Positions 7,131-54,725 of a stretch of DNA of 64,000 bases are shown piece by piece. How positions within the stretch are numbered: position 1 is the stretch's first letter; each line of letters opens with the position of its first letter. A program made the translations under genes and the position numbers. The DNA lies in the NCBI GenBank assembly GCA_964474655.1, contig CAYYTU010000004.1, positions 2,563 to 66,562 of the forward strand, given 5' to 3'. The DNA comes from an uncultured Anaerolineales bacterium. Its GTDB lineage: Bacteria; Chloroflexota; Anaerolineae; B4-G1. The notes beneath the pieces are model-generated. The model was given only the letters and a program-made list of their open reading frames with translations, made no database searches and was not told the DNA's origin.

Positions 7131-7287
7131 GCAAACGGAGCGATTCTAGGGTAGCCCAGACACATTAGATTGCCTACAGTCACGTTTATCGAGCGTATCA
7201 ACCCCAGCTTCGTTTGCCTTGTTCACGCTTTAAGGACGCTCTGTGGTCTTGAGGGCATTTTTGCTGAGCGACTTGCTTCGAAATCCC
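7131..7287 (+). repeat. Repeat family B, copy B1 (about 155-bp non-coding interspersed repeat)
   Basis: GCAAACGGAGCGATTCTAGGGTAGCCCAGACACATTAGATTGCCTACAGTCACG...CTTCGAAATCCC. About 95 % identical to 14339-14493. Internal complementary segments GCAAACGnAGC / GCTTCGTTTGC. Confidence 0.75.
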
Positions 7288-7672
7288 AGCAGAGACTTCG
7301 GAAGTCTTAAGATGTGTGGTTTGCGAACCCAATTTGGAAGCAAAGTGGGGTTATTTTGCATCCAAAATCCTCGACGGTAGACTTCCAAAGTCTGGAGTCG
7401 CTAACGTGACCTTTGACCGCCGGCCAACAAATCGCTTAATTGAATGTCGGGTACGGTTTCTTAAGCAGAATTGAGAGCAAAATGCCTATTCTAAGCCCTG
7501 AGAGGCACGTAGAGCCGCCGAGAACTTTTGTTCTATACAGTTTTTGACGTATTTCTGTCAGCGTGCCCCACAGAACGCGAAATTACAATTATGTATTTTG
7601 CTGAGAAGCGGTCAAACCTAATGCTAAACTGCGAGAGTTAAGTTGTAATACTAACTGGGAGGAGCGTTTTCT

Positions 7673-8488
7673 GTGAAGATAGTCCAACACCTGAAAGAGA
7701 TTTGGCAATATCGAGAGCTGGTCCGTAATCTAGTCGCGCGGGATCTCAAGGTCCGCTACCGCAACTCCGTGCTAGGCGTAGTCTGGTCGTGGGCCAATCC
7801 GCTGCTGATGATGGTGGTTTACACCTTGGTCTTCAATTTCCTGGCCGGGAACGCGAATTTGTCCCACTATCATGTCTTTATCCTGTGTGCCTTGCTGCCC
7901 TGGAACTTCTTCTCCCAGTCAGTGATGGGCGCCATCGGCAGCATCGTCGGCAACGCCCATCTGGTTAAAAAGGTCTATTTCCCCCGGGAGGTGCTTCCCC
8001 TCTCGATCATCTTGTCGAACCTGGTCAATTTTCTGATCGGACTGCCGGTCTTTTTTGGACTGGCTCTGATATCCGGCGCTCCGCTCACGCGCTGGGCGCT
8101 GCTACTGCCGATTCCGATCCTGGTGCAGGTCATCTTCAGCATCGGCATCTGCCTGATCCTCTCCACGCTCAATGTCTTCTACCGCGATACCCAGATCATT
8201 ATGGAAGTCTTGATGATGGCCTGGTTCTTCGTCACGCCCATCTTCTATCCCATCACGCGCGTGCCTCAAGAGGCGGCCATTCGGGGCATCACCTTCAACG
8301 CCCGCCTCTGGCTGCGTCGCTTAAATCCAATGGCCTCTATCATCGCCTCCTACCGCGACTTACTCTACTGGGGGGCGCCAACAGGGCTCGACTTCTTGCT
8401 GCGGACCGCCATCACCGCGTTGATCGTACTGGTCGTGGGCTACCTTATCTTCCTACGCTATAGCCCTCGCTTTGGAGAAGAGGTGTAG
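7673..8488 (+). CDS. ABC-2 type transporter permease (Wzm/TagG/KpsM-like polysaccharide exporter permease)
   Basis: Six-TM ABC-2 signature. The N-terminus WQYRELVRNLVARDLKVRYRNSVLGVVWSWANPLL is characteristic. GTG start preceded by GGGAGGAG. No cognate ATPase gene is adjacent. Confidence 0.85.
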   Translation: MKIVQHLKEIWQYRELVRNLVARDLKVRYRNSVLGVVWSWANPLLMMVVYTLVFNFLAGNANLSHYHVFILCALLPWNFFSQSVMGAIGSIVGNAHLVKKVYFPREVLPLSIILSNLVNFLIGLPVFFGLALISGAPLTRWALLLPIPILVQVIFSIGICLILSTLNVFYRDTQIIMEVLMMAWFFVTPIFYPITRVPQEAAIRGITFNARLWLRRLNPMASIIASYRDLLYWGAPTGLDFLLRTAITALIVLVVGYLIFLRYSPRFGEEV

Positions 8489-8494
8489 ACCAGG

Positions 8495-11053
8495 TTGCCA
8501 GTGAGCACACCCACAAGCGAATCTGGAAGAAGGGAGCGCCGATTCGCCGAGGTGATCGTCTTCTCGCCGGCCAAGGCATCGGAGAAGAAACCAGCCTTCA
8601 CGTACCATATCCCGGACGATCTGAGGAGCCAGCTGGAGGTCGGTTCGCTCGTCGTAGTGCCCTTTGGGCCGCGACGACTCTACGGACTCGTGGTCGCCCT
8701 GGGCGACGAATCACCCGTGCCAGAGACGCGTCCGGTCGGCTCACTGGTCGATCCTCAGCCTGTCCTCACACAGGAACAAATCGCGCTGGCCCGTTGGATA
8801 GCGCACGAATACCTGGCCCCGCTCCACGAATGCTTGGAATTGATGCTGCCGCCGGGATTGGTGGGCCACGCTGACGTACGGGTCAGTCTCCAGCACGACC
8901 GGCTGGAGGAGGCCGCCAACACCGAGGCCCAGGCCAGATTGCTGGCGGTGCTCCAGCGACGCGGGCCGCTGCGCGGCGCTCAGCTCGATCGCGCTCTGTC
9001 CGATATCGACTGGCGCCCGGCTTCCGAGCAGCTGGCTCGCCGGGGGATCGTCAGCCGCGAATCATTCCTGGCTCCGCCCAACGCCTCCCCCAAGCGCGTG
9101 CGCACCGTCCAGCTCGTTCCCTCGGTCGACGAGCAATCTGCGCTGGAAGGCCTGCGCAGCGATCGCTACCCACTCATTCTTGATATGTTACGGGTCGCCG
9201 ATGGGCCGGTGGCCGTCAAGCGGGTCTACGAGGAGACCGACGCCAGCCGCTACCACCTGAACAAGCTGGAGGAGCGCGGTGTGGTCACCTTCGGCAGCCA
9301 GGAGGTCTGGCGTGATCCGCTTTCCGATGTCTTCTTCGTGCCCACGGACCCGCCGCCGCTCACGCCAGACCAGGAGGTGGTCTGGACGGCCATTCGCTCC
9401 GCTGTAAAAGAGCCGGAAAGGAAGCCTGTGCCCTTTCTGCTCCACGGCGTGACCGGCTCCGGCAAGACTGAGATCTACCTCCGCGCCGTGGCCGAGGTTC
9501 TGGAGCAGGGCCAGAAGGCAATCGTACTTGTGCCGGAGATATCGCTGACGCCGCAGACCGTGGCGCGTTTCGCCGGGCGCTTCCCAGATCGCGTCGCCGT
9601 CCTCCACAGCGCTCTCACCGACGGAGAACGTTATGACACCTGGCGTCGCGCCCGAGCTGGCTTGGTCGATATCGTCGTTGGACCGCGCTCGGCGCTCTTC
9701 GCCCCGCTCTCGCCGCTAGGGCTGATCGTGTTGGACGAAGAGCATGACGACAGCTACAAGCAAGAGGCCCCGCGCCCCCGCTACCACGCCCGCGACACGG
9801 CGGTCGAGATGGCTCGCCTGAGCGACGCGACCGTCATCCTGGGTTCCGCCACGCCCAGCCTGGAATCATACCACCGGGCTCGAGAAGAGAAATTTACCTT
9901 GCTGGAGATGCCACGCCGCATTATGGGTCACACCCGCCGTCTGCAAGAGCTCCAGGCCCGTCACCACCTGGCTCATTCGCGCTACCGAGCGCTGACCGAG
10001 GGGGCTGCCGAGGCGCGTTACCTGCCCCTGCCGCCGGTGAAAATCGTCGATCTGCGTGCCGAGCTCCACGCTGGCAATCGCTCTATCTTCAGCCGCGCCC
10101 TCCAGAAGAAGATGGACCAGGCGCTGGAACGAGGGGAACAGGCGATCCTTTTCCTCAACCGGCGGGGGAGCGCCACCTTCATCCTCTGCCGTGATTGTGG
10201 GCACGTGATGGAATGTCCCCGCTGCGACACGCCGCTGACCTATCACGGTCACCAGGACCGTCTGGTCTGCCATCACTGCAACCACCGTGAGCCTCAACCC
10301 AAGCGTTGCCCATCGTGCGGCAGCCGACGCATTCGCTACTTTGGCCTGGGCACTGAGCAGCTGGAAGACGCCGTGCGGAAGCGTTGGCCCGAGGCGCGTC
10401 TGTTGCGCTGGGATAGAGATACGGCCCACACCCACGAGGCTCATACCAATATCATGAATCGCTTCGCCAGCGGCGCGGCCGACGTGCTCGTGGGGACGCA
10501 GATGATCACCAAGGGGCTGGATCTGCCGTTGGTGACCGTGGTGGGTGTCATCTCGGCCGACACGGCGCTCAATTTGCCGGACTTCCGCGCCAGCGAGCGC
10601 ACGTTCCAGCTGTTGGCCCAGGTAGCGGGCCGCGCCGGGCGCGGCCTGTTGGGCGGGCACGTTATCATCCAGACGTACCACCCCGATCATTACGCCGTCG
10701 AGGCCGCTGCCGAGCACGACTACGAGGCCTTTGCCCAGGAAGAGCTGGCTTTCCGCCGCGCGCAAGGCTATCCTCCCTATCGCCGGCTGGCCAAGCTGGT
10801 CTACGAAGATACCGACTTTCACCGCGCCCAGGCCCGCGCCGAGGCACTGGCCCAGGATTTGAGCAAGTTGCTGACGCAACGCCATCTTCCCGCCACGGAC
10901 CTGATGGGGCCTGTGCCGCCTTTCTTCGCCCGGCTGCGGGGACGCTACCGCTGGCAGATCTTGCTGCGACACCCAGATCCCCCAGCGCTCCTTGAGGCAG
11001 TCGATATTCCGCCGGGCTGGCACGTGGAAGTCGACCCAGTCAGCGTCCTGTAG
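8495..11053 (+). CDS. priA: Primosomal protein N' (replication restart helicase PriA)
   Basis: Walker A LHGVTGSGKTEIY, DEEH box, Cys4 zinc-binding CRDCGHVMECPRCDTPLTYH...CHHCNH...CPSCGS, and helicase C domain. TTG start as in the track. Confidence 0.95.
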   Translation: MPVSTPTSESGRRERRFAEVIVFSPAKASEKKPAFTYHIPDDLRSQLEVGSLVVVPFGPRRLYGLVVALGDESPVPETRPVGSLVDPQPVLTQEQIALARWIAHEYLAPLHECLELMLPPGLVGHADVRVSLQHDRLEEAANTEAQARLLAVLQRRGPLRGAQLDRALSDIDWRPASEQLARRGIVSRESFLAPPNASPKRVRTVQLVPSVDEQSALEGLRSDRYPLILDMLRVADGPVAVKRVYEETDASRYHLNKLEERGVVTFGSQEVWRDPLSDVFFVPTDPPPLTPDQEVVWTAIRSAVKEPERKPVPFLLHGVTGSGKTEIYLRAVAEVLEQGQKAIVLVPEISLTPQTVARFAGRFPDRVAVLHSALTDGERYDTWRRARAGLVDIVVGPRSALFAPLSPLGLIVLDEEHDDSYKQEAPRPRYHARDTAVEMARLSDATVILGSATPSLESYHRAREEKFTLLEMPRRIMGHTRRLQELQARHHLAHSRYRALTEGAAEARYLPLPPVKIVDLRAELHAGNRSIFSRALQKKMDQALERGEQAILFLNRRGSATFILCRDCGHVMECPRCDTPLTYHGHQDRLVCHHCNHREPQPKRCPSCGSRRIRYFGLGTEQLEDAVRKRWPEARLLRWDRDTAHTHEAHTNIMNRFASGAADVLVGTQMITKGLDLPLVTVVGVISADTALNLPDFRASERTFQLLAQVAGRAGRGLLGGHVIIQTYHPDHYAVEAAAEHDYEAFAQEELAFRRAQGYPPYRRLAKLVYEDTDFHRAQARAEALAQDLSKLLTQRHLPATDLMGPVPPFFARLRGRYRWQILLRHPDPPALLEAVDIPPGWHVEVDPVSVL

Positions 11054-11297
11054 CGTGGTAGACACAATATGCGTAAGCCTCAGTCCAACTTTGCGTTGGA
11101 GATCCCCACTCTCATCGGGGGAAGGGAAAGAGGCCGCCAGCTCAGCAGTGGCGCCTGAGATTGACATCACGGAGCGATCAAGGTATGCTTCCCCTCATCT
11201 TAATACGATCAGCCTTTGACGCTTGGATCCCTGGAGGGACGAGGGTGAGAATTAAATTCGACAGACGACGTTGGCCCGGCAACGCTCGCAACTGGAC

Positions 11298-12153
11298 GAT
11301 GTTGAGTGCGCTGCTGGTCACTTTGGTAGCAGGTAGCTGCTTGCTCGCCAAGCCGGTGCTAGGGCGCTGGGAAGTGCCCGCAACTAATGGCATTGGCGAT
11401 CAATCTCACTCCTCGGCCCAGAAGGCCATCAGCCTCACGTCGACGCCCACGCCTGTCGCCCGACCGGAGGCAGCGGAGGTCCCGATTCTGATGTACCATT
11501 ATGTCTCTGATCTGCCGGCAGACGCCAACACGTATCGACGCGATCTTACCGTCTCGCCGGAGGCTTTCCGGGCACAGTTGGAGTACCTCAAGGAAGCCGA
11601 TTACCGCACGATCACCCTCACCGATCTCCACCTTCACCTGACAGAGAGCTATCCCCTGCCAGAGAAACCCGTCATCCTCACCTTTGACGACGGCTACCGC
11701 GACGCTTACGAGGTGGTATTTCCGTTATTGTTGGATTATGGGTTCACCGGCACATTTTTCGTGCTCTCCACGCCAGCTCATCACGAGTCACCGGAGTATT
11801 TGACCTGGGATCAGATGAACGAAATGGCCCGAGCCGGTATGTCGATCCAGTCACACGGACGGGACCACGTCGATCTGCGGAATCGTTCCTACGAGTACCT
11901 GGTTTACCAGACGCTGGGTATCCAGGAGGCGATCGAACAACATACAGATATCAAACCGCGCTTCTTCTGCTATCCTGGGGGAAAACGGGACGCCAACGTG
12001 ATTAAGGTGTTGGAGTCGGCCGGCTATTGGGGAGCGGTGACGACTGAATGGGGTCAGACACACACGCGAGAAGACTTCTACGAAATGCCCCGCCTGCGCG
12101 TCCGAGGAACGGGAACGCTGGAGAGCTTCATCAAGATGCTGGAAGGCGACTGA
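11298..12153 (+). CDS. Polysaccharide deacetylase (NodB-homology, CE4) with N-terminal membrane anchor or signal
   Basis: ILTFDDGY and HGRDH NodB motifs. Start chosen at MLSALLVTLVAG (11298). The track's 11161 start adds an Arg-rich, non-protein-like extension. Confidence 0.8.
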
Positions 12154-12178
12154 ACGCCGCTGCACCACATATGTAAAA

Positions 12179-12212
12179 GGCCCGGAGGAATACTCCGGGC
12201 CTTTCCGTGTTT
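12179..12212. terminator. Bidirectional intrinsic terminator between convergent genes
   Basis: GGCCCGGA-ggaatac-TCCGGGCC 8-bp GC stem followed by TTTCCGTGTTT, with an A-run on the other side. Confidence 0.6.
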
Positions 12213-12213
12213 G

Positions 12214-12651
12214 CTAGCGCTCCGGCTCGCAAATGATGATCCTATCGCCCGAACGATCGGTGTGGATATTATACTCTTCTCCCCCTGCCGCAAGAAGCAA
12301 GCGATAACCGGGGGTAATGACCTGGGCATACATCTCTCCCTCTTGAGGGCAGCCTAAGCTGGCATCCGACCACTCGACCGCTTCCATCTCAAGCACCTCA
12401 ATCTCTTGCGGGGAGGCGTCGATCTCAGCCGCCAAGTAAGATACGGCCGCTTCCTCGATCTCCGTGCTCGATTCCGAGCCTGGCACCAATGGGGACACGG
12501 GACTGACATCTGTCTGTGGCACGGGACTTTCTCCTCTGGTGACAGGGGGCGTGAGATCGATCTCCAGAGAGGTCTCCTCCACTCCTTCACAGGCGACCAG
12601 TGCTAATCCGAGCACCAATAACGTCGTCAACATCAAGTGTCTAGCCTTCAT
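12214..12651 (-). CDS. Hypothetical secreted protein or lipoprotein
   Basis: Start at MKARHLMLTTLLVLGLALVAC (signal peptide with Cys), preceded by a strong RBS AAGGAGGTAAAG. No recognisable domain. Confidence 0.55.
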   Translation of the reverse strand: MKARHLMLTTLLVLGLALVACEGVEETSLEIDLTPPVTRGESPVPQTDVSPVSPLVPGSESSTEIEEAAVSYLAAEIDASPQEIEVLEMEAVEWSDASLGCPQEGEMYAQVITPGYRLLLAAGGEEYNIHTDRSGDRIIICEPER

Positions 12652-12827
12652 CTTTACCTCCTTGATTTTATGTACTTTTTTACTGATCCATACACGACTC
12701 ACTAACGGTCCCGGCACGCTCTATGGAGCGCTTAAATCTGCCTGGACAATTTTACTTAACTCCTGCAGTTTAGCGACTTCAGACTTCTGCTCCTCAAAAA
12801 TTTGAAAAGTGCAGGAGTCAAGTTATT

Positions 12828-12947
12828 ACTACAACGGGATTTCAACGGAGTTGATCTCTCGATAGTGATCCTGAACTTATCGAAGGATCACGACTTGGCG
12901 AAGATCGTACCTTTCGACAGGCTCGTCAGAGTCTCGTTGTAGTATTA
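12828..12947. repeat. Repeat family A, copy A3 (120 bp)
   Basis: ACTACAACGGG at 12828 and GTCTCGTTGTAGTATTA at about 12931-12947. Confidence 0.65.
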
Positions 12948-13118
12948 TGGTCAAGATCAGTAAGACACTGATTAGACGCTGATCGACCGGCTTTTGTTCC
13001 GCAAGGCGGTTAAATCCCTCGCTCAAGAGGGACAAGAAAAAGACGAACGCGCAAAGGAGGCGCCAGATGAGCAGCGCGAACCTCAGGAGCGCCAGTCAGG
13101 ACGCTGTGCTGAGTTACA

Positions 13119-14270: not shown

Positions 14271-14338
14271 ACCTCCTCCATAAAATCAGAATAGCGGCTA
14301 ACCTCGTCTCTCAATCGCCAAACACGTCGCTTAAGCGG

Positions 14339-14493
14339 CAAACGAAGCGATTCTAGGGTAGCCCAGACGCATTAGATTGCCTACAGTCACGTTTATCGAG
14401 CGCATCAACCCCAGCTTCGTTTGCCTTGTTCGCGCCTAAGCACGTTCTGTGGCCTTGAGGGCATTTTTGCTGGGCGACCTGCTTCGAAATCCC
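14339..14493 (+). repeat. Repeat family B, copy B2, inserted between the anti-sigma gene and the downstream membrane-protein gene
   Basis: About 95 % identical to B1 (7131-7287). It ends exactly at the stop of the 14494..15018 gene. Confidence 0.75.
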
Positions 14494-15018
14494 TTAAGCA
14501 CACCGCAAGACCCTGATCCAGAGTCCATTGAGCGCCAGGGCCATCAGCGTGCAAGCCAAAAACAACAGCGTCAATGGCAAGGTAAGCGGTCCAATGGAAA
14601 TGACCAGAGCACGCCCCAGCGTATTCAAGAAAGAGATCCCCCGACTGACCATCACCGGGCCAGCGCTCACGAGAGCCGGGATGATGCCCAACGGCTCCAG
14701 CAAGCTCCTGATAGCGCCAGGCAGTACGAGCGACGCCAAAGCAATTGTGCCCAGTGCTAATCCCAGGCTGCCGATGATGGCTCGACTGGTCCGATGGCGA
14801 TGGCGCTCGAGGCGGGTCATCACGCGGACGTGTAGATCAGCCGGCGCCATCGCCATCGGAGCAGTATGGAACAGGCGGTCCACGACTTCCAACTTTTGCC
14901 ACCGGGCGCGACAATCAGCGCACATTCGCAGATGGTCATCCAATTCCAACTGAGCCATCTCACAGAGGCAACCATCAAGTCGCCTCGACATCATCTTATC
15001 GGCTTCTTCACAACGCAT
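14494..15018 (-). CDS. zf-HC2 type transmembrane anti-sigma factor
   Basis: H-x3-C-x2-C-like zinc motif (CLCEM...HLRMCADCR). Two or three TM helices. Overlaps the upstream ECF sigma gene by 11 nt. Confidence 0.8.
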   Translation of the reverse strand: MRCEEADKMMSRRLDGCLCEMAQLELDDHLRMCADCRARWQKLEVVDRLFHTAPMAMAPADLHVRVMTRLERHRHRTSRAIIGSLGLALGTIALASLVLPGAIRSLLEPLGIIPALVSAGPVMVSRGISFLNTLGRALVISIGPLTLPLTLLFLACTLMALALNGLWIRVLRCA

Positions 15019-15571: not shown

Positions 15572-15899
15572 ATCTTCCAGGCTCTTTGGGATTTCGCGTG
15601 GTCGATAGCTTGAGATTCCTCAGCGGGGTGTGCCCCCGCATCTGTGTTCGAAGTAATCCTAAACCAGATATGAGACGCGGGTTACAACCCCGATTTGAAC
15701 ACCAAGTAAAGTCCCAGAGAACCATCTTCCATAAAGCGGCGCCACAATGTTTCCTCAGCCTGACATGTTGTTATACGCATTATAATGGATAAAGTTGCAA
15801 TGGAAAGCGATCATTTCTCCATCGGGTGCGATCTGGAAACCTGCCCAGGCTCTGGTATAATTAAAGTGAAAAGCAATCGAAAGAACGGGAAGTGGAATA

Positions 15900-21829: not shown

Positions 21830-23767
21830 TCACACGTCCAGGTTGCGTACCTGTTTGGCGTGGGTCTGGATGAAGTGGCGTCGAGGCGGCACGCTGGAAC
21901 CCATCAGCATGCTGAAGGTCCGATCGGCCGCTGCAGCGTCTTCGATTGTCACGCGCAACAGCGTGCGATTCTCCGGGTTCATCGTCGTCTCCCAAAGCTG
22001 CTCCGGATTCATCTCACCCAACCCCTTGTAACGCTGGAGCGAGACCCGCCGTCCGTCTAGCTCCTGCAAAATTCTCGCCCGCTCCGCCTCCGAGTATGCA
22101 TAATGCTCCTCGCGCCCAGCCTTGATCAAGTAAAGGGGAGGCTGTGCGATGTACAGGTGTCCTTCCTCAATGAGCGGCTGCATATAGCGATAGAAGAAGG
22201 TTAGAAGCAACGTGCGAATGTGAGCGCCGTCGATGTCGGCATCGGTCAGCAGAATCACCCGCCCGTAGCGCAGGCCGTCCAGGCTGAACTGCCCGCCGAC
22301 GCTGGTGCCCAGGGCGGAGATTAGCGCCTGCACCTCCTTGTTCTTGAGGATGCGGTTCAGCCCCGCTCGCTCCGTGTTTAGGATCTTGCCGCGCAGGGGC
22401 AAGATGGCCTGGAAATGCCGATCGCGTCCTTGCTTGGCACTGCCGCCGGCGCTATCTCCCTCCACGATGAAGAGTTCCGAACGCGCCGCTTCCTGCTCCG
22501 AGCAATCGGCCAGCTTGCCCGGCAGGGTCAAGCTTTCCAGCGTGCTCTTGCGGATCACCAGATCACGAGCCTTACGGGCCGCTGCCCGCGCGCGGAAAGA
22601 GGTGAGACACTTGCGGATGATGTTCCGCGCGGCCGCCGACTCTCGCTCCAGAAACTCGGAGAGCGCCCGGGTGACCACCGATTCGACCATCCCTCGTACC
22701 TCGGCGTTCATCAGCTTCACCTTCGTCTGGCTCTCGAACTGGGGGTCCGGGTGCTTGACGCTGACGATGGCCGTCAACCCCTCGCGCACATCCTCGCCGG
22801 AGAAGTTAGGGTCTCTGTCTCTGAGCTTGCCCGTCTTGCGAGCATACTCGTTCATCGTGCGAGTCAATCCAGAACGGAGCCCCGTCAGGTGTGAACCGCC
22901 GTCCACAGTGTGGATCGTGTTGGCGAAGGCATAGATGGACTCGGCGTAAGATTCAGTGTACTGGAGTGCAACCTCAATCCCCACCCCGTCCTCATCCGAC
23001 TGGATATAGATCACCTCATCGTGAAGCACCTCGCGGTTGCGATTAAGATAGCGCACGAATGAAGCGATCCCCCCCTCAAAGTAGAAGGTCATATCCCGCG
23101 GGAAAGGCTGCTCTCGCTCATCGACCAGTCGGATAGAAACCTCGCTGGTGACGAAGGCCATCTCCCGCAATCTTTGCATCAGCGTATCGTAATCAAAATC
23201 CACGTCCTCGAAAATCGTACGGTCAAAGCGGAACGTGACGCGCGTGCCGCGCCCCTCAGCAGCGCCGATATCCTCTACCGGCGTGACGGGGGTTCCCTTT
23301 TCGTACCGCTGGCGGTAGCGGCGACCATCACGGGGGTTATCGATCACCACCTCCAACCACTCGGAGAGCGCATTGACAGCCGCCACACCCACACCGTGCA
23401 GTCCGCCGGAGACCTTGTAGCCGTCTCCACCGAACTTCGCTCCGGAATGGAGGCTCGTCATCACCAGCTCCAGGGTTGAGATGCCCTTTTCTGGATGGCG
23501 GGCGGTGGGAATGCCACGCCCATTATCCGCCACCGTGACCGAGGAATCGGCATGGATGATAATTTCGATGCTGTCACAGAGCCCCACCAGGGCCTCGTCA
23601 ATCGCGTTGTCGACCACCTCGTATACCAGGTGGTGCAACGCCCGCAGATCCGTGCCGCCGACGTACATACCGGGCCGGCGGCGGACGGCTTCCAGTCCCT
23701 CCAATACCTGAACGTCATCCGCTTCGTAACGGCCAATCTGACTCATAGCCCTATGCATCACAATCAC
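21830..23767 (-). CDS. gyrB: DNA gyrase subunit B
   Basis: [43 protein letters not shown] (GHKL ATPase), TOPRIM and C-terminal domains. About 640 aa. GTG start in GTGA overlap with the upstream gene. ATG 23758 or 23746 are alternative starts. Confidence 0.93.
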
Positions 23768-24789
23768 ACATCCCCATCAGTAACTGACGCACGTCCAATC
23801 GCGTCCACCAACCTGTCGCGATAAAACATAAAAATCGCTGCCAATACGCCGCCTGCAATGGCGCCGTTGCCCAGGATACCAACCAACAACAACCACGAAT
23901 CGCCGTCCGGGAGCGACCAAGCGTAGCCCAGGCCCTTGTAAATCACCAATCCCAATCCCACCAACCCTAGCACTGAGGGCAGTTGCGCGTGGCTTAACAC
24001 CACACTTTCCCAGACCGCTTGCACCAGACCGCGCCCCCCGATCAGAATGCTGGGAATCACGAATATCAGGTGGAGCGCCAGGTAGATGGTCAACGCCACC
24101 CCCATTACCCAAACCAACACTCCGATCGGCTCCGCGATCAGCATGGCAATTCCCATCAGCAAAAACCAAAACAAAGCGAATATCGCCCAGATCAGAAGCA
24201 GGCCTACCTCGAATAGTAAGAGGCGAAGTATCTTCCACAGGCCCCTATGCATCCCCCGCGCTTCCTCTGGTCGCTCGGGCTTTTTCTGGCCAATCAACCC
24301 TTCGGCGATCGCCATCCGACTGGCTAACTCGTTGAGGTAGAACCCTCCCAGCACCAGCCCTGCCAAAAGCAATCCCAGCCACCAGGGGATAAAAGTCAAG
24401 ACGCTCGTGATGGAGAAGACACGCGGAGAGCTCAGCGGTGAGACCGGGCCAATATGGTATTGCGCCAGCAGACTGGGCACTTGTACCATCGGTAAGCTGC
24501 CCAGAAGCGAGACCAGGTTAAACTGCTGTCCAAACTCCTCCAACAGCCGAACGGCTTGCGCGGCCTGTTGGGCCATATCTGGATTGGCGGATGCCTGCGC
24601 CTCAAACAGAGCGGAAAATCGCTGCAATAATGGAGCCACCGACAGCCTCGGGCCCAACCAGAGCAAGAGATCCAACAAAGCCGGTACCGCCGCCAGATCC
24701 AGGTTTCGACTCAAAACCTCAAATCCAGCCGTCAAACAACCGATCACCCCGCGGGGAGCGCTCGTCTCTTCTGCTCTTCTTAATTTCAT
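23764..24789 (-). CDS. Hypothetical polytopic membrane protein, translationally coupled to gyrB
   Basis: Multiple hydrophobic helices, no recognisable motif. Four-nt overlap with the gyrB start. Confidence 0.5.
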
Positions 24790-24828
24790 ACGAGCCTATA
24801 TTATACCACGACTTGAAAGGGCGGTAAA

Positions 24829-24863
24829 CCTGTCGGTGCTTTGGAACTGCTCCGTTTGCCCCC
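24829..24863. repeat. Repeat family B, truncated fragment B4
   Basis: CCTGTCGGTGCTTTGGAACTGCTCCGTTTGCCCC matches the B3 terminal module, with an internal deletion. Confidence 0.5.
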
Positions 24864-24934
24864 AATCAGATTGACTTTACCGCGTAGACATCTTGGCGTA
24901 TAATATCGCCTTGCATAGATCATGCAACTTATGA

Positions 24935-25218
24935 CTACAACGAGGCTTTGACGAGCCTCTCGAAGGGTGCGATTTTCGCCAAGTCGTCATCCTTCGACAG
25001 GCTTCGGCGTGAGCTCAGCCGAATGGATCAGGATGACTATCGATTGGACTTTGGACAAAGCTCGCAAGACCTTCCCGAAAGCTTTCAGAAGTGGTGAAGC
25101 TAGCCGAAAACTTTTTAGACTGTTCGTTTCAACTTTCGGGAAGGTTCTCAGCAGAGATCTAAGTTTTATCCAAAGTCCAGTATTGAGAGTCAACTTTGTT
25201 GAAACCTCGTTGTAGCAT
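24935..25218. repeat. Repeat family A, copy A4 (284 bp, the longest copy). Carries the A2-type hairpin module plus an extra AT-rich segment.
   Basis: ACTACAACGAG at 24935 and CCTCGTTGTAGCATTA at 25203-25218. Internal stem GAGCCTCTCGAAGG...CCTTCGACAGGCTT. The track ORFs 24967..25215(+) and 24987..25193(-) lie wholly inside it. Confidence 0.65.
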
Positions 25219-30040: not shown

Positions 30041-30268
30041 CTAGAAGTCGAAGCTCTGTCCCAATGCGACGACGTTGGTCGCTCGCAAGCCCTTGGGGCC
30101 CTCCTCCACGTTGAACTCGACGCGCTGACCTTCGTTCAACGTCCGGAAGCCCGAACCTTCGATCGCGGAGTAATGGACGAAGACATCGTCCCCCCCTTCG
30201 CGCGAGATAAAGCCATAGCCTTTATCATTGCTGAACCACTTGACGGTTCCCGTTTCTTTTTCTGCCAT
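30041..30268 (-). CDS. Cold-shock protein (CspA family)
   Basis: [36 protein letters not shown], with RNP1/RNP2 motifs. Start taken at ATG 30268. Confidence 0.9.
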
Positions 30269-42217: not shown

Positions 42218-42220
42218 ATC

Positions 42221-43403: not shown

Positions 43404-43689
43404 CAATGCCTCCTGTTTGAGTCTCAAGTCTGCACCAAAGCGAAAACGTTTTGTGGAGCTGCGGGGATTATAGCCCGCTCGATTTACAGCGTCAACCGCA
43501 AACGGCTCGCTAATAATTTTGTACCAGACCTGCTCACGGCTGGACCTGCACCACCTTAAACCGTTGACCAAGTGAAGTGGAAGAAACGAGTTTTCGGACA
43601 GCCCCGTATTTGGTCAGCGTGTTAGGCATCGCCCCCCCCACAGCTGGAGGCGTGGACTGTCGTCCACGCCGAGCACCACACGAAGTCCC

Positions 43690-43740
43690 AAGCCATACTT
43701 ACTTGGACTTAGGGTGCCTGGGAACTGCTTCGTTTACCCA
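43690..43740. repeat. Repeat family B, truncated fragment B5
   Basis: TAGGGTGCCTGGGAACTGCTTCGTTTACCC matches the B3 terminal module. Confidence 0.45.
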
Positions 43741-43755: not shown

Positions 43756-43784
43756 TTGACCGCTTCTATCTCTTAAGGTATAAT
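43756..43784 (+). promoter_or_regulatory. Consensus sigma-70 promoter for rpmH (TTGACC-17-TATAAT)
   Basis: -35 at 43756-61, 17-nt spacer, -10 at 43779-84. A 10-bp leader hairpin CTCCCACGCC...GGCGTGGGAG lies at 43836-43867. Confidence 0.6.
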
Positions 43785-43923
43785 TTACATTCCGACTGTT
43801 GAATTTATGCGAGCGTCTATCCGGGTGTGATCGGGCTCCCACGCCGTTCGAGTTATGGGCGTGGGAGTACATCTGTTAGCTACCGGGTAGCCGTGAGCCT
43901 GTTGAGAGTATGGGGAGGAGAAA

Positions 43924-44535: not shown

Positions 44536-44536
44536 T

Positions 44537-45991: not shown

Positions 45992-46000
45992 AAACCACCA

Positions 46001-46780: not shown

Positions 46781-46912
46781 ATCACTCCCCGAAACGGCCC
46801 CCAGCCTCGCAGGGAGCTAACCCAGTTCGCTCGGGGGCCTCAGCTGAAAGATTTTTTCGGCAATAGATTCATTATTGATTCGCGTTGAGCGATTGTCGGA
46901 GGAGAACAGTCG

Positions 46913-47809: not shown

Positions 47810-47842
47810 GCGCACAGACCGTGACGGGGGCGAGCAATCTTT

Positions 47843-48781: not shown

Positions 48782-49562
48782 CCAAAAAGGCGGCGTCGGT
48801 AAGACGACCACCGCGATCAACGTGGGGGCCTATCTGGCCGAATGGGGCTCGCGGGTCCTGCTGATCGACATCGACCCTCAGGCCAATGCCACATCCTCTC
48901 TCGGCATCGACAAGCGAGCAGTCTCGTCCTCCATCTACGACGTGCTAGTGCAGGAGCTACCACTCAAGCGCATCGTGCAACCAACCGAGCAAGCGCTTCT
49001 GGACATCGCCCCCTCCACGCCAGAGCTGGCCGGAGCCACCGTCGAGATGGTCGATCTGCCCGACCGCGAGTATCGCCTCCACCAAGCCCTGGAGGATCTG
49101 GGACCAGGTTACGACTACGTATTGATCGATTGCCCCCCCAGCCTGGGCATTCTGACGGTGAACGGCCTCACAGCGGCCCAGAGCGGCGTGATTATCCCGG
49201 TCCAATGTGAGTATCTGGCATTGGAGGGGCTTTCTCAGCTGGCGCGTACGATCCGCTTGGTGCGCCAGTCCCTCAACCCCGATCTGAAATTGCGTGGGCT
49301 GGTGATGACGATGTACGACGCGCGCACGAACCTCTCACAACAGGTAGTCGAGGAAGCACAGCGGTACTTCCCCGATCGTGTCTTCGAGACCATCATTCCG
49401 CGCAACGTGCGGCTGAGCGAAGCGCCCAGCTTCGGCGTACCGGTGATGGTCCACGCCCCCAGTTCGACGGGCGCCCAGGCCTACGCCGAGCTGGCCCGCG
49501 AGCTGGTAGATAGCGAAGAAGCATCCCAGCATCAACACGAGGGGCAACATGTCGCCACGTAA
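48756..49562 (+). CDS. parA: Chromosome partitioning ATPase ParA/Soj
   Basis: IYALANQKGGVGKTTTAINVGAYLA (deviant Walker A), DIDPQANATS. Confidence 0.9.
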   Translation: MPHIYALANQKGGVGKTTTAINVGAYLAEWGSRVLLIDIDPQANATSSLGIDKRAVSSSIYDVLVQELPLKRIVQPTEQALLDIAPSTPELAGATVEMVDLPDREYRLHQALEDLGPGYDYVLIDCPPSLGILTVNGLTAAQSGVIIPVQCEYLALEGLSQLARTIRLVRQSLNPDLKLRGLVMTMYDARTNLSQQVVEEAQRYFPDRVFETIIPRNVRLSEAPSFGVPVMVHAPSSTGAQAYAELARELVDSEEASQHQHEGQHVAT

Positions 49563-50406
49563 GAGAGGTTTGGGTAGAGGGCTGGAGTCACTGATCCCCG
49601 CCGAGGACGGCGAGACGTCTCGTGGTGTGTTGGAGGTCGCTCTTGCCTCGATCGCGCCTAACCCCCACCAGCCGCGTTCCCCGATTCGAGAACAGGATCT
49701 GCTCGAGCTGGCGGCCTCGATCGAGGAGCATGGCATCATACAGCCCCTCGTAGTCACCGAGGCGCCCGATGGCTACCAATTGATCGCTGGCGAACGACGT
49801 TGGCGAGCGGCGCGGGTAGCCGGTCTATCCACCGTGCCAGTGCTGGTGAAAGACGTCGCCCCCAGCGAGATGTTGGAGCTGGCCCTGGTGGAGAACCTCC
49901 AGCGCTCTGACCTCAACCCGCTGGAGGAGGCGATGGCCTACGAGCAGCTCGCTGACGAGTTTGGCCTCACGCAGAAGGAGATCGCGCAACGGGTGAGCAA
50001 AAGCCGCACGGCGATCACCAACACGCTGCGCCTTCTGAAGGCGGCCCGGCCCGTGCGCGAGGCCTTGCTGGAAGAGAGAATCAGCGAGGGACACGCACGG
50101 GCAATCCTGGGCCTGGAACAGCCGGAGGCCCAGGCGGCAGCGCTCAAGACGGTGCTCAAACGAAACCTGAACGTGCGCCAGACGGAGGCGCTGGTCCGTA
50201 AACTTCTGGGCCGCCAGCAGGAGAAGCAGAAACGCACCCCCCAGCGCTCGCCGGAGGTTGAAGCGCTGGAGAACCGCTTCCGCGAGTCACTGGGCACCAA
50301 GGTGCGACTAAAGCGAAAGGATAAGGGCGGACGGCTGGTCATCTACTTTTATTCCGACGAGGAGTTAGAAGCGCTTTACGACCAGATTGTTGGCGATGAG
50401 CTATGA
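49549..50406 (+). CDS. parB: Chromosome partitioning protein ParB/Spo0J
   Basis: IQPLVV...LIAGERRWRAARVAGL (ParB box), HTH. Confidence 0.9.
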   Translation: MSPRKRGLGRGLESLIPAEDGETSRGVLEVALASIAPNPHQPRSPIREQDLLELAASIEEHGIIQPLVVTEAPDGYQLIAGERRWRAARVAGLSTVPVLVKDVAPSEMLELALVENLQRSDLNPLEEAMAYEQLADEFGLTQKEIAQRVSKSRTAITNTLRLLKAARPVREALLEERISEGHARAILGLEQPEAQAAALKTVLKRNLNVRQTEALVRKLLGRQQEKQKRTPQRSPEVEALENRFRESLGTKVRLKRKDKGGRLVIYFYSDEELEALYDQIVGDEL

Positions 50407-50426
50407 GTGGAGGAGAGAATCTGATG

Positions 50427-50819
50427 GAGAAGATCAAGCGCTACGAGGACGTCGTCGCCGCTATTCAAGAACGGTCGCGGGAGGGGAAGCTGCGTTGCGG
50501 CAACGCCTTCCGCGTCGCGGAGGAATTGAACGTGACGCCGCTGGACGTGGGAAGAGCTGCCGACGCGATCGACGTTCGGCTCAGCCATTGTCAGCTGGGG
50601 TTGTTCGGCTACAACGGCGAGGAACGCATCATCCAGCCAGCCGAGGAAGTGCCTGCGGAGGTAGAGCAGGCTATCGACGAGGGATTGGTGCTGGGACGCC
50701 TGCCGTGCGCTGTAGCGTGGGCCATAGCCCAGCGGTTCGACCTGCGCAAGCCGGATGTAGCCAACGTCGCCGAGCGGCTCGACATTCACATCGGACAGTG
50801 CCAGCTGGGCGCGTTCTGA
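50427..50819 (+). CDS. Hypothetical small protein made of two tandem roughly 55-aa repeats, each ending in a C-Q-L-G-x-F motif
   Basis: Repeat 1 LRCGNAFRVAEELNVTPLDVGRAADAIDVRLSHCQLGLFG. Repeat 2 LPCAVAWAIAQRFDLRKPDVANVAERLDIHIGQCQLGAF. RBS GGAGGAGAG. ATGA overlap of the upstream ATG with the parB stop. Confidence 0.5.
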   Translation, partial: EKIKRYEDVVAAIQERSREGKLRCGNAFRVAEELNVTPLDVGRAADAIDVRLSHCQLGLFGYNGEERIIQPAEEVPAEVEQAIDEGLVLGRLPCAVAWAIAQRFDLRKPDVANVAERLDIHIGQCQLGAF

Positions 50820-50896
50820 GCGACGCCGGAAGCGGGAAAAACGGATGCCGGGTGCCACAATGGCCCGGCTTTGTGCTTTTTATAAGAGGAGAAGCG

Positions 50897-51475
50897 ATGC
50901 CCACCACAGGGAGAGATGACCGCCGCGCTGCGTTGGGACAGATTGCGGAGGAAATCCGACGATGTACGCTCTGCAAGCTGCATCAGGAGCGCACACAGGC
51001 GGTACCCGGTACAGGGCCGGCCGACGCCGACATCTTCTTCCTGGGCGAGGGGCCCGGCGCCAAAGAGGATGAGGAAGGCCGCCCCTTTGTCGGCGCGTCG
51101 GGCTCGTTCCTGGATGAGCTGCTGGCGAGCATTGAGATGGACCGCGAGAAAGTTTTTATCACCAACGTGGTCAAGTGCCGCCCACCGGGCAATCGGGATC
51201 CGCATGTGGCCGAGGTGCGCGCATGCACCGCCTATCTGAACCGTCAGCTGAGCATCATCCAACCCCAGTTGATCGTCACGCTGGGACGCTTCGCAATGAA
51301 CACCTTCTTCTCCGACGGGCGTATTTCAGAGATTCACGGTCAGCCTCGGCGCATGGATGATATGCTCTATCTGCCGCTCTACCATCCGGCGGCGGCGCTC
51401 TACCGTGGTTCGCTGCGGGGTGTGGTCAAGGAGGACTTTCAGCGCATCCCAGAGCTGCTAGAAGCGGTTTCTTGA
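50897..51475 (+). CDS. Uracil-DNA glycosylase, family 4 (thermophile-type, Fe-S)
   Basis: FLGEGPGAKEDEEGRPFVGASG, and Cys residues at the N- and C-terminal positions typical of family 4. RBS AAGAGGAGAAG. Confidence 0.85.
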   Translation: MPTTGRDDRRAALGQIAEEIRRCTLCKLHQERTQAVPGTGPADADIFFLGEGPGAKEDEEGRPFVGASGSFLDELLASIEMDREKVFITNVVKCRPPGNRDPHVAEVRACTAYLNRQLSIIQPQLIVTLGRFAMNTFFSDGRISEIHGQPRRMDDMLYLPLYHPAAALYRGSLRGVVKEDFQRIPELLEAVS

Positions 51476-51826
51476 TCAGGCGGTCTCAATCCGATCCAGC
51501 GCAAACGGGATGTCGCTGGGGATCGCCAGAGCCTCATGGCCGCAGTTGGGGCAGGTGGCGGCCTCCTCGTCGCTCTCGAAGCGCAGCCCACAGCAATTCC
51601 AGCAGATGAATCGATGCGGCCCAGCTTCGATGACGATCTCGGCATCCTCAGCCGGTGTGCCTGCGCTCACCTCCTGCAGTAAGCATCGTAAGTCGTCCTC
51701 TTCTCCTTGAGACCAGCCATAGATCACAAAATCGAGCGCTGTGATTCGCCTGGCGTCCTGGGAGCGCGCCTGCGCCAGGGCCTGATTGAGCAGCGCTTCT
51801 ACTTTTTCCTCTTTGCTGATTGCCAA
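51476..51826 (-). CDS. HypA/HybF-like zinc-finger protein (lacks the N-terminal MHE nickel site)
   Basis: ...ICWNCCGLRFESDEEAATCPNCGHEA (CxxC...CxxC) at the C-terminus. 116 aa. Confidence 0.55.
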   Translation of the reverse strand: MAISKEEKVEALLNQALAQARSQDARRITALDFVIYGWSQGEEDDLRCLLQEVSAGTPAEDAEIVIEAGPHRFICWNCCGLRFESDEEAATCPNCGHEALAIPSDIPFALDRIETA

Positions 51827-51860
51827 TCACGTCTCCTTCCAGATCATCCGTCGAGCGAGG

Positions 51861-52922
51861 CTACCATTCCACGGTGCAGCCCAGCCCCGGCACGTCGGTG
51901 GCGATAAGCCAACCCTCCTCCAAGCGGAAGCCCGGCACGGTCGGATCGCCGATCAGATCGAAGTGACCGTCGAGGTCGCCGTATTGGACGTTGGGGCTGC
52001 TGAGTGCAAAACTCAGCCCGGCCGCGATGAGCAGCGCCGGCTCGTTGACGCAGCTGACCATCGTGGACATCCGGGCTGTGCGGGCGATGGTGTCAATCTG
52101 ACGGGCGCAACGCAAACCGCCACAGGCTGCGAGTTTGACGCTCATCCCATCGGCGGCCCGCTGCGCCGCGACCTCCAGGGCCGAAGGCGGTTGTAACACG
52201 CTCTCGTCGGCCAAAATCGGCACCGGGCTGCGCCGGGTGACGTCGCGCAGGGCCTCCAGGTCATCGGCCGGGGTGGGTTGCTCCAGCATCTCCAGCTTCC
52301 CGGCCAGGGCGCGGGCCACGTCCAACGCTTGCTGGACGGTGTAACCCTGGTCGGCGTCCAGGCGCAAGGTGAGGCGCGGCAACGCATCGCGGATGGCCCG
52401 CACACGTCGCACGTCCTGTTCTGGGTCGAGCCCGCCCTTGATTTTGAGGATGCGGAAGCCCTGTCGGGCGCGGTCTTGCGCCCTTATGACGGATTCCTTC
52501 ACCGAAGCAATACCAATCGTGATCGAGGTCTGTATCCGGTGACGGTATCCCCCCAAAATCCGATGGAGCGGCATACCAGCGGATAGGCCCAACAAATCGT
52601 GAAACGCAAGATCGAAGGCACAGAGCGCTGAGGGCGCCCCGGTGGTCAATTGGGCTAGCTCGTCGAGGGCATATTCAGTATTCAGGGGATTCAGATCAAG
52701 CGCGCGGTTCGCGCAGGACTGGCATGCCGCGACGACCTTCTCCTTCGTCTCACCGGTGATGGCCGGGTCGAAGGCCGCACACCCCCAGGCCACTTTTCCA
52801 TCGGAGGTCTCAATCCGGATGAAGACCACTGTCACACTGTCGATCTCGGAATGGTAGGCTGTGCGGTAAGGCACGCGCAGCGACAATTCCATCGGCGTGA
52901 TTTCTACGTCTGTGATTTGCAT
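51861..52922 (-). CDS. Enolase-superfamily enzyme (mandelate racemase/muconate lactonizing family; dipeptide epimerase or OSBS-like)
   Basis: KIKGG (KxK), LRLDADQG, EQP, and ILADES metal-ligand motifs. Confidence 0.8.
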   Translation of the reverse strand: MQITDVEITPMELSLRVPYRTAYHSEIDSVTVVFIRIETSDGKVAWGCAAFDPAITGETKEKVVAACQSCANRALDLNPLNTEYALDELAQLTTGAPSALCAFDLAFHDLLGLSAGMPLHRILGGYRHRIQTSITIGIASVKESVIRAQDRARQGFRILKIKGGLDPEQDVRRVRAIRDALPRLTLRLDADQGYTVQQALDVARALAGKLEMLEQPTPADDLEALRDVTRRSPVPILADESVLQPPSALEVAAQRAADGMSVKLAACGGLRCARQIDTIARTARMSTMVSCVNEPALLIAAGLSFALSSPNVQYGDLDGHFDLIGDPTVPGFRLEEGWLIATDVPGLGCTVEW

Positions 52923-52995
52923 TCAACCTCCTTGCCATAACTTTTAAGCGCTCTACCGTCAGAGGATAGCACCAATTGGGATCTGCGACAAGCTG

Positions 52996-54486
52996 TTACC
53001 GCCGCTCCACGGTGATTATTGAGGGCACGGTGGTGTGGGAATCGAGTTTAAGCTCAACCACACCGGCATTCAGCCAGAGCCCTGTGGAGGAGCCGCCGTC
53101 TAGGTTGAGCGCGACGTCGATATCCAGCGCCAGGTCAGGCCGGGCCAGGAATACGGCCAGCGCGTGGAGGCTGAGCGTGCCACGCGGCGCGACGATTAAG
53201 AGGACGTTCCCCGCACAATCCTGAGCCACAACGGTACGCCGTGCCGTGGCACCGTCATCGGCGTCGGCGGGAAAGCCCATCTCGCCGCCGGGCTTGACCA
53301 GCACGGGGAAGGAGACCAGCGCCTCCGACAACGGTTCGGCGGGGTTGTAAGATCGCTCGCGCAACCAACGCACACTGACTTGCTGATCAGCTGTGACGGC
53401 GAACATGCCCGCAAAGTCGCCAAAGGGCTCCCCGTAGCGCTGCCCGCCGCTGATGAGCAGCCCTAACGTCTCTTTCCCCCGCTCATTTTCCGGGGCGAAA
53501 TAGCCGCCGTTAACCACCAGCAAAGCCGAGGTGGTCTCGGCCCACGCCAAGACCGAACGCGGTTCGCTGGGGTTGTAGCGAACGCGAAAGTGTACTTGAG
53601 ACGGGTCCAGCCGCAAGATACGAAGCCGCTCCACATGCTGCTCCTGGGGATCGCTGCTTTCGGCGCTGACGTCGAGTTCACGATATTCGACCCCCGCCTC
53701 CAACGCCTGCCAGCCGGTGTCCGGAAGCGACGGCGCCTCGTAATCATCATGGGCCAGGAGCGTCAGACGGTCGCTGTGGAACCTTACGGCCTCCACGCCG
53801 GCCTCGCCGGGCAGGGGGCCGACGATAGCCAAGTCACGCATCGCCCGCTCGACGTGGAGATCGACGGGGAGAAGTGATCGCACCAGGGTGCGTTCATCGG
53901 GCAGGGCGTAAAACGTCTCATCCAGCACAATAGCTTCCAGATGGAGATCGAGCCCCGCTGCCTCTTGAGTCAACAAAACCCCCATCCGCCGCCAGCGCAG
54001 GCCTAAATTGACGTCGGCGTAGAGAACCAGGCCGCCCGGTTGGAGATCAACCGTCAAATCGCGAAACCGGCTTGCTGTGCTTTCGGGGAGCCCCTCGCGG
54101 CGCCAAAGCTCGTTGAGGCGCGTCTCGGACAGTGTGAACAGATAGGTGCTTTGTCCCTGGGCCTGGCTTTCGTAAGCGCCAGCGTTGACCATCGCGGTGC
54201 GACCAAGGGCCGTCACGCCGTCCGTCGTACCATCCAGACGAAGTGGCGCGGTGAGCCAGGTCGGCAGGAGCAACTCTACTTGATCAAGGGATGGAGCATC
54301 CAACATCAACGGGGCTAACGGCGGGGGCAACACACCTTCGAAGCTTTCCACACGTTCAAGGTTCAGGACGCCAATCAATAGGCGAGGGGCAGCGTTGAGG
54401 CCCAGCAGCACGAAGGCCATGCAAAGTGACAGTGGTAACCCAACCACCAGGATGGCGGTCAGGATCTTACGGCGTCGTTCTGGCAT
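52996..54486 (-). CDS. Membrane-anchored phosphodiester glycosidase family (DUF2233) protein
   Basis: C-terminal LVVNGGYF...RTVVAQDCAGNVLLIV...ALNLDGGSST. Start taken at MPERRRKILTAILVVG. Confidence 0.7.
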   Translation of the reverse strand: MPERRRKILTAILVVGLPLSLCMAFVLLGLNAAPRLLIGVLNLERVESFEGVLPPPLAPLMLDAPSLDQVELLLPTWLTAPLRLDGTTDGVTALGRTAMVNAGAYESQAQGQSTYLFTLSETRLNELWRREGLPESTASRFRDLTVDLQPGGLVLYADVNLGLRWRRMGVLLTQEAAGLDLHLEAIVLDETFYALPDERTLVRSLLPVDLHVERAMRDLAIVGPLPGEAGVEAVRFHSDRLTLLAHDDYEAPSLPDTGWQALEAGVEYRELDVSAESSDPQEQHVERLRILRLDPSQVHFRVRYNPSEPRSVLAWAETTSALLVVNGGYFAPENERGKETLGLLISGGQRYGEPFGDFAGMFAVTADQQVSVRWLRERSYNPAEPLSEALVSFPVLVKPGGEMGFPADADDGATARRTVVAQDCAGNVLLIVAPRGTLSLHALAVFLARPDLALDIDVALNLDGGSSTGLWLNAGVVELKLDSHTTVPSIITVERR

Positions 54487-54568
54487 CAGCACCCGATTCT
54501 CGCTTGAAAGGCAAGACGTCTTGGCATGGGGAGGTAATCTATCACAATGGGGAGGATCTGGCAAATCA

Positions 54569-54725
54569 GGATTTTCGAAGCGGATCGTCTGCGAAGGCGC
54601 CCTCAGTGCTACAGAGTGTGCTCAGATGCGAACAAGGCAAACAAAGCTGGGGTTGATACGCTCGGTAGACGCGCCTGTCGGCAATCTAATGCGTCTAGGG
54701 TGCTTGGGAACTGTTTCGTTTGCCC
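54569..54725 (-). repeat. Repeat family B, copy B3 (reverse orientation, about 80 % identical to B1/B2)
   Basis: Reverse complement aligns with B1 along the whole length. The terminal module is AGGGTGCTTGGGAACTGTTTCGTTTGCCC. Confidence 0.65.

Follow-up and report, generated by a model that had tools for sequence, protein, structure and literature searches.

The 64,000-nt stretch of contig CAYYTU010000004.1 analysed here (the window), which comes from an uncultured Anaerolineales bacterium, carries an interspersed repeat of about 157 bp, family B, that we identify, with a probability of about 0.9, as a miniature inverted-repeat transposable element (MITE), that is, as a non-coding, non-autonomous DNA transposon. 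This identification is based on four kinds of evidence taken together: target-site duplications around the copies, orthologous sites that are empty in relatives, the non-coding nature of a sequence with short and imperfect inverted ends, and assemblies that break within copies. The MITE family appears to be undescribed until now, its host being an uncultured member of the Anaerolineae; no described MITE in Anaerolineae (Chloroflexota) was found in the literature.

The six copies regarded as full are three in the window (B1, B2 and B3) and one each in L001, L005 and L006 (L numbers denote loci and contigs outside the window). Perfect direct repeats of 5 bp flank four of the six, for which the probability by chance is of the order of 1e-11, and the two imperfect pairs, those of B3 and L006, fall on copies that are among the most diverged. 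The pentamer differs at every copy, which indicates that these repeats are target duplications and not a recombination core.

Moreover, comparison with relatives, which an earlier note on this DNA had proposed, was carried out and rendered empty sites for both B2 and B3. B2 lies within an operon, between the stop codon of the anti-sigma gene (14494) and the next gene start (14270), as the earlier note had placed it, and is antisense to that operon. Its neighbours, all on the minus strand, are a zf-HC2 anti-sigma gene and a DUF8173/bactofilin-like gene, with an extracytoplasmic-function (ECF) sigma gene upstream (Pfam), and the anti-sigma stop codon is the exact insertion point. In L008, whose DUF8173 orthologue is 70% identical, the sigma gene, the anti-sigma gene, 35 nt and the DUF8173 gene follow each other with no element; the C-termini of the two anti-sigma proteins align (...LRCA-stop), and it is exactly there that the window has B2 plus one pentamer. 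B3 is flanked by the terminator of a cold-shock gene (54774-54743) and by a promoter-like sequence of the NAGPA gene, TTGCCA-17-TAGATT (54564-54536), and is in sense orientation relative to both adjoining genes. In L010 the 3' end of csp and its terminator are ca. 97% identical to the window through ...GGTTTTTCGTT, and the junction reads GTTTATAACT/TGCCAGCTG, as compared with ACCTATGACT-B3-TGATT/TGCCAGATCC in the window; the empty site thus has a lone pentamer (...TATAACT/TGCCAG...) where the window has ...TATGACT-B3-TGATT/TGCCAG.... B3 is likewise absent from L013, a contig of 20 kb that comes from the same relative as L010 and is syntenic with the window. Flanking proteins of the relative with empty sites are 68-70% identical to those of the window. 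A paralogous comparison is available for B1, which is inserted within a copy of an adjacent repeat, "A": the second "A" copy, A2 (12787-12947, reverse complement), runs across the point at which B1 interrupts the first, A1, although A1 also carries ca. 95 extra nt at that point relative to A2.

The window, with a G+C content of 60% and no tRNA or tmRNA genes, spans the parAB-jag-yidC-rnpA-rpmH-gyrB region. Its three full copies had been recognized in the earlier note with boundaries that lie at most 3 nt from the revised ones, and the gene map confirms that every copy is intergenic. The near-identity of B1 and B2 also holds, but the figure of about 95% given for it was slightly high, since the two are 92.5% identical over 161 columns (BLAST), with 95% and 91% in two gapless blocks. 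B3 is full-length, in reverse orientation and, as had been estimated, about 80% identical to them (80-81% in gapless arms, 76-78% by BLAST), a result with which a three-way alignment concurs. Two fragments had further been reported to match the terminal module of B3, and they do: the 27-nt module GGGCAAACGRAGCAGTTCCNAAGCACC is found with at most two mismatches in both and at the 5' end of B3 (54699-54725), always on the minus strand, and no match to it would be expected by chance in the window. They had been taken for truncated copies, a wording that did not stand. Similarity to the full copies is not above shuffled controls past 27-30 nt, and we therefore rejected the possibility that they are degenerate full copies; they are solo left ends, remnants of older copies. 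Searches of the window with left-end and right-end profiles rendered no further copies, no other left end and no other right-end motif. Coordinates are collected in Table 1.

Table 1. Copies of family B, their flanking pentamers and associated features. Promoter offsets are counted outward from the left tip of the element to the start of the sigma-70-like promoter.
Feature	Position	Strand	Size or sequence	Remarks
B1	7129-7287	+	159 bp	Full-length; between GT4 glycosyltransferase and ABC-2 transporter genes (Pfam)
B1 target-site duplication	left 7124-7128; right 7288-7292		AGCAG / AGCAG	5/5
B1 internal inverted left-end copy	7206-7218	+	AGCTTCGTTTGCC	
B1 right terminal repeat	7275-7287	+	GCTTCGAAATCCC	
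B1 promoter-like site			TTAAAA-18-TACAAT	Offset 15 nt; probably no real promoter, directed into a gene's 3' end
B2	14336-14493	+	158 bp	Full-length; antisense to ECF sigma / anti-sigma / DUF8173 operon
B2 target-site duplication	left 14331-14335; right 14494-14498		TTAAG / TTAAG	5/5; right copy overlaps anti-sigma stop TAA on minus strand
B3	54569-54725	-	157 bp	Full-length; second subfamily; between cold-shock gene and NAGPA-domain gene
B3 target-site duplication	left 54726-54730; right 54564-54568	-	TGACT / TGATT	4/5; minus-strand reading
frag1	24835-24861	-	27 nt	Solo left end; between divergent promoters
frag1 promoter	24876-24904	+	TTTACC-17-TATAAT	Offset 14 nt; upstream of aminotransferase leader
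frag2	43713-43739	-	27-30 nt	Solo left end; near rpmH (ribosomal protein L34) promoter
frag2 promoter	43756-43784	+	TTGACC-17-TATAAT	Offset 16 nt; rpmH promoter
L001 copy	476-633			Full copy
L001 flanks			TCTAA / TCTAA	5/5
L003 promoter			TTGACC-16-TATAAT	Offset 15 nt; also the rpmH promoter
L005 flanks			AATTG / AATTG	5/5
L005 promoter			TTGGTT-16-TAGAAT	Offset 14 nt; weaker match, 8/12
L006 flanks			CGATG / TGATA	3/5
L006 promoter			TTGCTC-16-TATAAT	Offset 14 nt
ISAzo13-family insertion sequence in L004	86-1432		426-aa transposase	PF07592 DDE transposase; terminal repeats imperfect, ca. 30 nt; 40 nt from a family B copy

The full copies, whose boundaries were set by a uniform rule ((G/C)GGCAAACG...TTCGAAAnnCC), range in size from 147 to 159 bp. 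A left end, GGGCAAACGAAGC, is followed by a subfamily-specific stretch, by ca. 65 variable nt with a hairpin that L006 has lost by deletion, by an inverted copy of the left end, and by a 65-nt 3' part that ends in GCTTCGAAATCCC. The internal inverted copy, with equivalents of that of B1 at 14413-14425 in B2 and 54636-54648 in B3, belongs to a block, AACCCCAGCTT.GTTTGCCTTGTT, that is invariant in all copies. Invariant columns of the six full copies are grouped into three blocks, namely GGCAAACG on the left, the block just mentioned in the middle and CTTCGAAA on the right, so that what is conserved is both ends and the internal copy of the left end, while the remainder drifts. Complementary 12-mers (GGCAAACGAAGC / GCTTCGTTTGCC) are present in every copy and form a 13-bp stem around ca. 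65 nt. As for the terminal inverted repeats, the reverse complement of the right end of B1, GGGATTTCGAAGC, has the GGG tip in common with the left end, GGGCAAACGGAGC, and likewise the CGAAGC block, except for an A-to-G change specific to B1, and the arrangement GGG-N4-CGAAGY is found at both ends in all copies, with 9 of 13 positions matching. In L006 the same position of both ends has changed from C to T. A conserved coding frame was considered for the family and rejected: there is no frame that stays open in every copy, and B1, B2, L001 and L006 have stops in all six frames. A short form of 91 nt, bounded by GGGCAAACGAAGCC and GGCTTCGATTGCC and made up of the left end and the internal repeat only, is found in L013 (9455-9545), which suggests that the long form may be the short form plus an extension with its own, weaker right end.

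A degenerate pattern that matches all three window copies (CATTAGATTGCC...ATCAACCCCAGC) rendered a single locus among 185,579 species-representative genomes. This locus, L001, belongs to a metagenome-assembled genome (MAG) of an uncultured Anaerolineales bacterium, and the element is the sole sequence that it has in common with the window. A first pattern scan of metagenomes rendered no copies; a second pattern, built on the block with the highest conservation, rendered four true, more divergent copies (L003 to L006), all in one JGI metagenome. Two further matches, L002 and L007, were discarded as chance matches in coding DNA. No copies were found in viral contigs by the pattern scans, and no match was found by BLAST in 72,556 plasmids. 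Outside the window, one MAG and five contigs derived from metagenomes or SRA data carry members of the family. In pairwise comparisons B1 and B2 are 91.9% identical, L001 is 91% identical to each of them, B3 is 73-76% identical to these three, L005 67-75% to the others, and L006 60-66%. In short-read (Logan) assemblies of this very strain, contigs begin within B2 (L009) and within B3 (L011 and L012); L003, L004 and L023 also terminate inside a family copy. Such breaks indicate the behaviour of a multi-copy repeat.

These results are consistent with mobilisation in trans by a DDE-type transposase, a mechanism that we infer from the flanking duplications. The enzyme, encoded elsewhere, would cut and paste the element or copy it, and its 5-bp staggered cuts at the target would generate the 5-bp duplication that flanks each insertion. 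B1 and B2 would derive from a recent burst, and B3 would be older and represent a second subfamily. Several observations weigh against the identification as a MITE. An autonomous element with matching ends was not found in the window, in plasmids or in viral contigs, and the sole transposase near any copy is that of the ISAzo13-family insertion sequence in L004, whose terminal repeats are unrelated. Besides, the terminal repeats of family B are short and imperfect, and end alignments of single copies are not above shuffled controls except for L006. The ISAzo13-family transposase was considered as parent of the family and rejected, given its unrelated terminal repeats. No transposase or resolvase genes lie beside the solo ends, whose neighbours are gyrB and genes for glycosyltransferases, RidA, UbiE and a flavoprotein.

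Other origins have to be weighed against a MITE. The near-identity of B1 and B2 had been ascribed in the earlier note to recent mobilisation or to gene conversion. The former is substantiated by the 5-bp duplications, the two orthologous empty sites and the copies at unrelated loci elsewhere, whereas gene conversion is unneeded as a source and leaves the flanking duplications unexplained. That near-identity, and the intergenic location of a partly palindromic element, might also suggest spreading by segmental duplication or gene conversion, or a REP/REPIN moved by a RAYT (IS200-like) enzyme, but similarity between the copies stops at the limits of the element, a separate 5-bp duplication borders each of them and the unit is 157 bp long, so that we give this possibility hardly any weight. 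REPs are palindromes of 20-40 bp (cf. PMC3733652), paired in REPINs, that are not known to be flanked by target duplications. It is also very improbable that family B is a structured RNA (a small-RNA family, a cis-regulatory leader or an attenuator) conserved for an RNA function and not transposed. The complementary segments had been predicted to fold into a long hairpin, and in this the earlier note was right, the stem being formed by the left terminal repeat paired with its internal inverted copy. RNAalifold rendered, on the unit strand, this 13-bp stem plus small hairpins, and the other strand folds differently. Eight pairs of the main stem are invariant, three vary one-sidedly (G-C or A-U to G-U) and two are mismatched in one sequence each. 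The stem is present in all copies, and its five one-sided changes, on which alone the strand preference is based, lead to G-U on the unit strand four times and to a mismatch once. The sequences of different organisms are highly identical, and in a small hairpin (GCAUUUUUGC to GCGYYUUCGC) one pair has switched in compensation from A-U to G-C, a difference between two clades. These points favour an RNA. However, in no pair of the main stem have both bases changed in compensation, the overall covariation is marginal (a score of 0.214, as compared with 0.187 in shuffles, 19 of 500 shuffles being as high), the orientation to the adjoining genes varies (antisense in B2, sense in B3), there is neither a conserved upstream promoter nor a terminator, and the target duplications and empty sites would have no explanation. 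The evidence for RNA structure is therefore weak and, since the stem lacks compensatory double changes, its arms are more plausibly a transposase-recognition sequence present twice than an RNA fold under selection. No Rfam match was found for the window at the gathering threshold, nor for the copies and their relatives at permissive thresholds; neither the copies nor the sequence immediately behind them hold a terminator-like site, and the element has no promoter of its own. The role as attenuator or RNA processing site that had been proposed for B2 is unsupported, and the element will fold if co-transcribed, as other MITEs do.

As to the parentage of the element, a Tn3-family derivative (TIME-like), moved by a Tn3-type TnpA, is a conceivable alternative to which we attach a rather low probability. 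Its GGG/GGGG tips, its 5-bp duplication and its solo ends would fit such an origin, as would the AT-richness of five of the six duplicated pentamers in a genome of 60% G+C, and a TTAG/ATAG motif ca. 40 nt from the left tip resembles the inner TAAG of Tn3-family repeats. Duplications of 4-5 bp are also made by other IS families such as IS701/ISAba11, IS1380 and ISH3. Several features fit this origin poorly: the ends are alike over only ca. 13-20 nt, not 38, no BLAST match was found in the 72,556 plasmids, in which Tn3 relatives abound, and a gap of 7.2 kb between B1 and B2, with three copies in 48 kb, is difficult to reconcile with transposition immunity. G-rich tips, 5-bp duplications and solo inverted repeats have been described for Tn3-family ends, TIMEs and MICs (PMC4337579, PMC4133298). 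TIMEs are 262 bp long, have repeats of 38-40 bp clearly homologous to Tn3-family ends, and are usually present in single copy, which has been ascribed to the transposition immunity of the Tn3 family (PMC4133298).

The ends of family B are repeatedly found 4-16 nt, mostly 12-16 nt, upstream of the -35 box of outward-facing promoters, in a sample of ca. 10 sites. Promoter-like sequences with a match of at least 9/12 at offsets of 13-17 nt are met at 0.15% of the window positions and at 0.6% in ten intergenic regions, a background against which their presence at five of ten tips has a P of ca. 2e-9 to 2e-12; the offset range was picked after seeing the data, so that this value has to be discounted, but not by that much. 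No comparable promoter was found at B2, at the left end of B3, or in L001 or L004. Three further observations speak for the choice of landing site as the source of this pattern. In L005 a solo left end was already present at 14 nt from the promoter before a full copy was inserted at the same pentamer. The rpmH promoter is faced by a left end in the window, in L003 and in L013, and in L023 by a right end at a distance of 12 nt from its -35 box. The opposite orientation in L023 implies an independent event, so that the rpmH promoter was hit at least twice independently. No family end is present at the rpmH promoter of the more distant relatives L018, L019 and L021. In addition, the right end of B3 in the window is 4 nt from a promoter-like site that has its counterpart at the empty site in L010, TTGCCA-17-TAAATT, as read by eye from the alignment.

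It may be proposed, tentatively, that family B targets a band ca. 4-16 bp upstream of sigma-70-type -35 hexamers, with the left end usually facing the promoter, or that it is selectively retained there. Targeting could be cued by AT-rich or bent UP-element DNA or by promoter-bound proteins; retention could occur because the site is a safe one, or because the left end has been co-opted as an upstream promoter module. It is unlikely, in our opinion, that the left end, or perhaps the whole element, has been co-opted as a promoter-upstream module (activator-binding or UP-like, at ca. -50 to -75), although the survival of solo left ends beside strong promoters would then be explained. The left tips lie 14-16 nt from promoters at frag1 and frag2 and in L003, L013, L005 and L006, the 27-nt solo ends are ca. 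90% alike amid intergenic DNA that cannot be aligned, and the module holds a GAA-N4-TTC dyad. However, the same spacing is found in the young copies L005 and L006, which points to target choice, L023 has a right end at the same promoter, and the promoter is missing at B2, at the left end of B3 and in L001 and L004, in a sample that is small. Insertion guided by promoters, if true, would be an unusual mechanism for a bacterial DNA transposon.

Two further observations were made at these promoters. The solo left end frag1 is surrounded by back-to-back divergent promoters (24823-24904), both TTTACC/TATAAT with 17-nt spacers, of which that on the minus strand is 10 nt from the ATG of the gene at 23764-24789, which suggests a leaderless mRNA. 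The rpmH 5' leader (43785-43923) holds a hairpin, CTCCCACGCC-N(10-13)-GGCGTGGGAG, with GCGTCTATCC ahead of it, that is also found in L013 (9585-9726), L018, L021 and L023, Anaerolineae relatives whose rnpA proteins are only 76-89% identical; no Rfam match was found for this leader with E up to 5, and it could be an autoregulatory ribosomal-protein leader. Between RidA and rpmH, eight consecutive C residues (43636-43643) adjoin a GC-rich hairpin (GGCGTGGAC...GTCCACGCC), and the same-strain Logan contig L011 ends there.

Repeat family "A", into a copy of which B1 is inserted, has members that are 72-94% identical at 6948-7128 (+), 12787-12947 (-) and 24934-25043 (+, with a closing stem that extends to ca. 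25217). They are located directly after a stop codon or a promoter, upstream of co-oriented genes, and have a closing inverted repeat, ACTACAACGAG / CTCGTTGTAG; the third occupies the 5' untranslated region of the aminotransferase gene, after the TTTACC-17-TATAAT promoter. This repeat has no Rfam match at permissive thresholds and could be either an RNA leader or a further mobile element. Just downstream of B1, two near-identical small hairpins, AGACTTCGGAAGTCT (7291-7305) and AGACTTCCAAAGTCT (7381-7395), bracket a segment of ca. 75 nt that, since it is missing from the paralogous A2, might represent another small insertion whose ends are duplicated. In the vicinity of B3, a gene of the mandelate racemase/muconate-lactonising-enzyme family (51861-52922, minus strand, 353 aa), with the NAGPA gene on one side and hypA on the other, has no counterpart in L010, L013 and L015, contigs of the close relative that are syntenic in other respects, which implies a gene-sized insertion or deletion. 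Two cold-shock-domain paralogues (30072-30254 and 54838-55020) are ca. 70% identical in DNA.

As one more MITE family, family B is in itself ordinary biology, with the practical consequence that it breaks short-read assemblies and thereby affects MAG quality. B2, placed at the anti-sigma stop of an ECF sigma operon, and another copy, which separates a terminator from a promoter, amount to natural experiments in operon expression. Bacterial MITEs are small, non-coding, bounded by terminal inverted repeats and flanked by a duplication of fixed length; they are dispersed in many intergenic copies, in either orientation, can fold if co-transcribed, and leave solo ends and length variants, all of which applies to family B if its short, imperfect end repeats are taken as terminal inverted repeats. 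Well-known examples are the Correia element (CREE) of Neisseria and RUP of Streptococcus pneumoniae, both of which duplicate TA. MITEAba12 of Acinetobacter makes a 9-bp duplication (PMC6382973). Family B is unrelated in sequence to these three and duplicates 5 bp, with no fixed target sequence, and it differs from typical MITEs by its unusually weak terminal repeats and by the near-perfect inverted copy of the left end that it has inside. The ERIC/IRU sequences of enterobacteria are imperfect palindromes of ca. 127-150 bp, found in transcribed intergenic regions in either orientation and well conserved between species, at different loci; to our knowledge, no target duplication or defined transposition mechanism has been demonstrated for ERIC. 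Family B resembles them in being an imperfect palindrome with an intergenic distribution, and differs in its clear 5-bp duplications and empty sites. With TIMEs and MICs it has in common the GGG/GGGG tips, the 5-bp duplications, the tendency to AT-rich targets, the solo ends and mobilisation in trans, whereas, unlike TIMEs, it has repeats of ca. 13-20 nt without detectable Tn3 homology and three copies within 48 kb. Regarding the position upstream of promoters, Ty3, Ty1 and the TRE5-A element of Dictyostelium are eukaryotic retrotransposons that Pol III factors direct to a defined distance ahead of transcription units. The likeness of family B to them is one of behaviour only, that is, a narrow distance and repeated hits, in a bacterial DNA element and as a statistical pattern over ca. 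10 sites.

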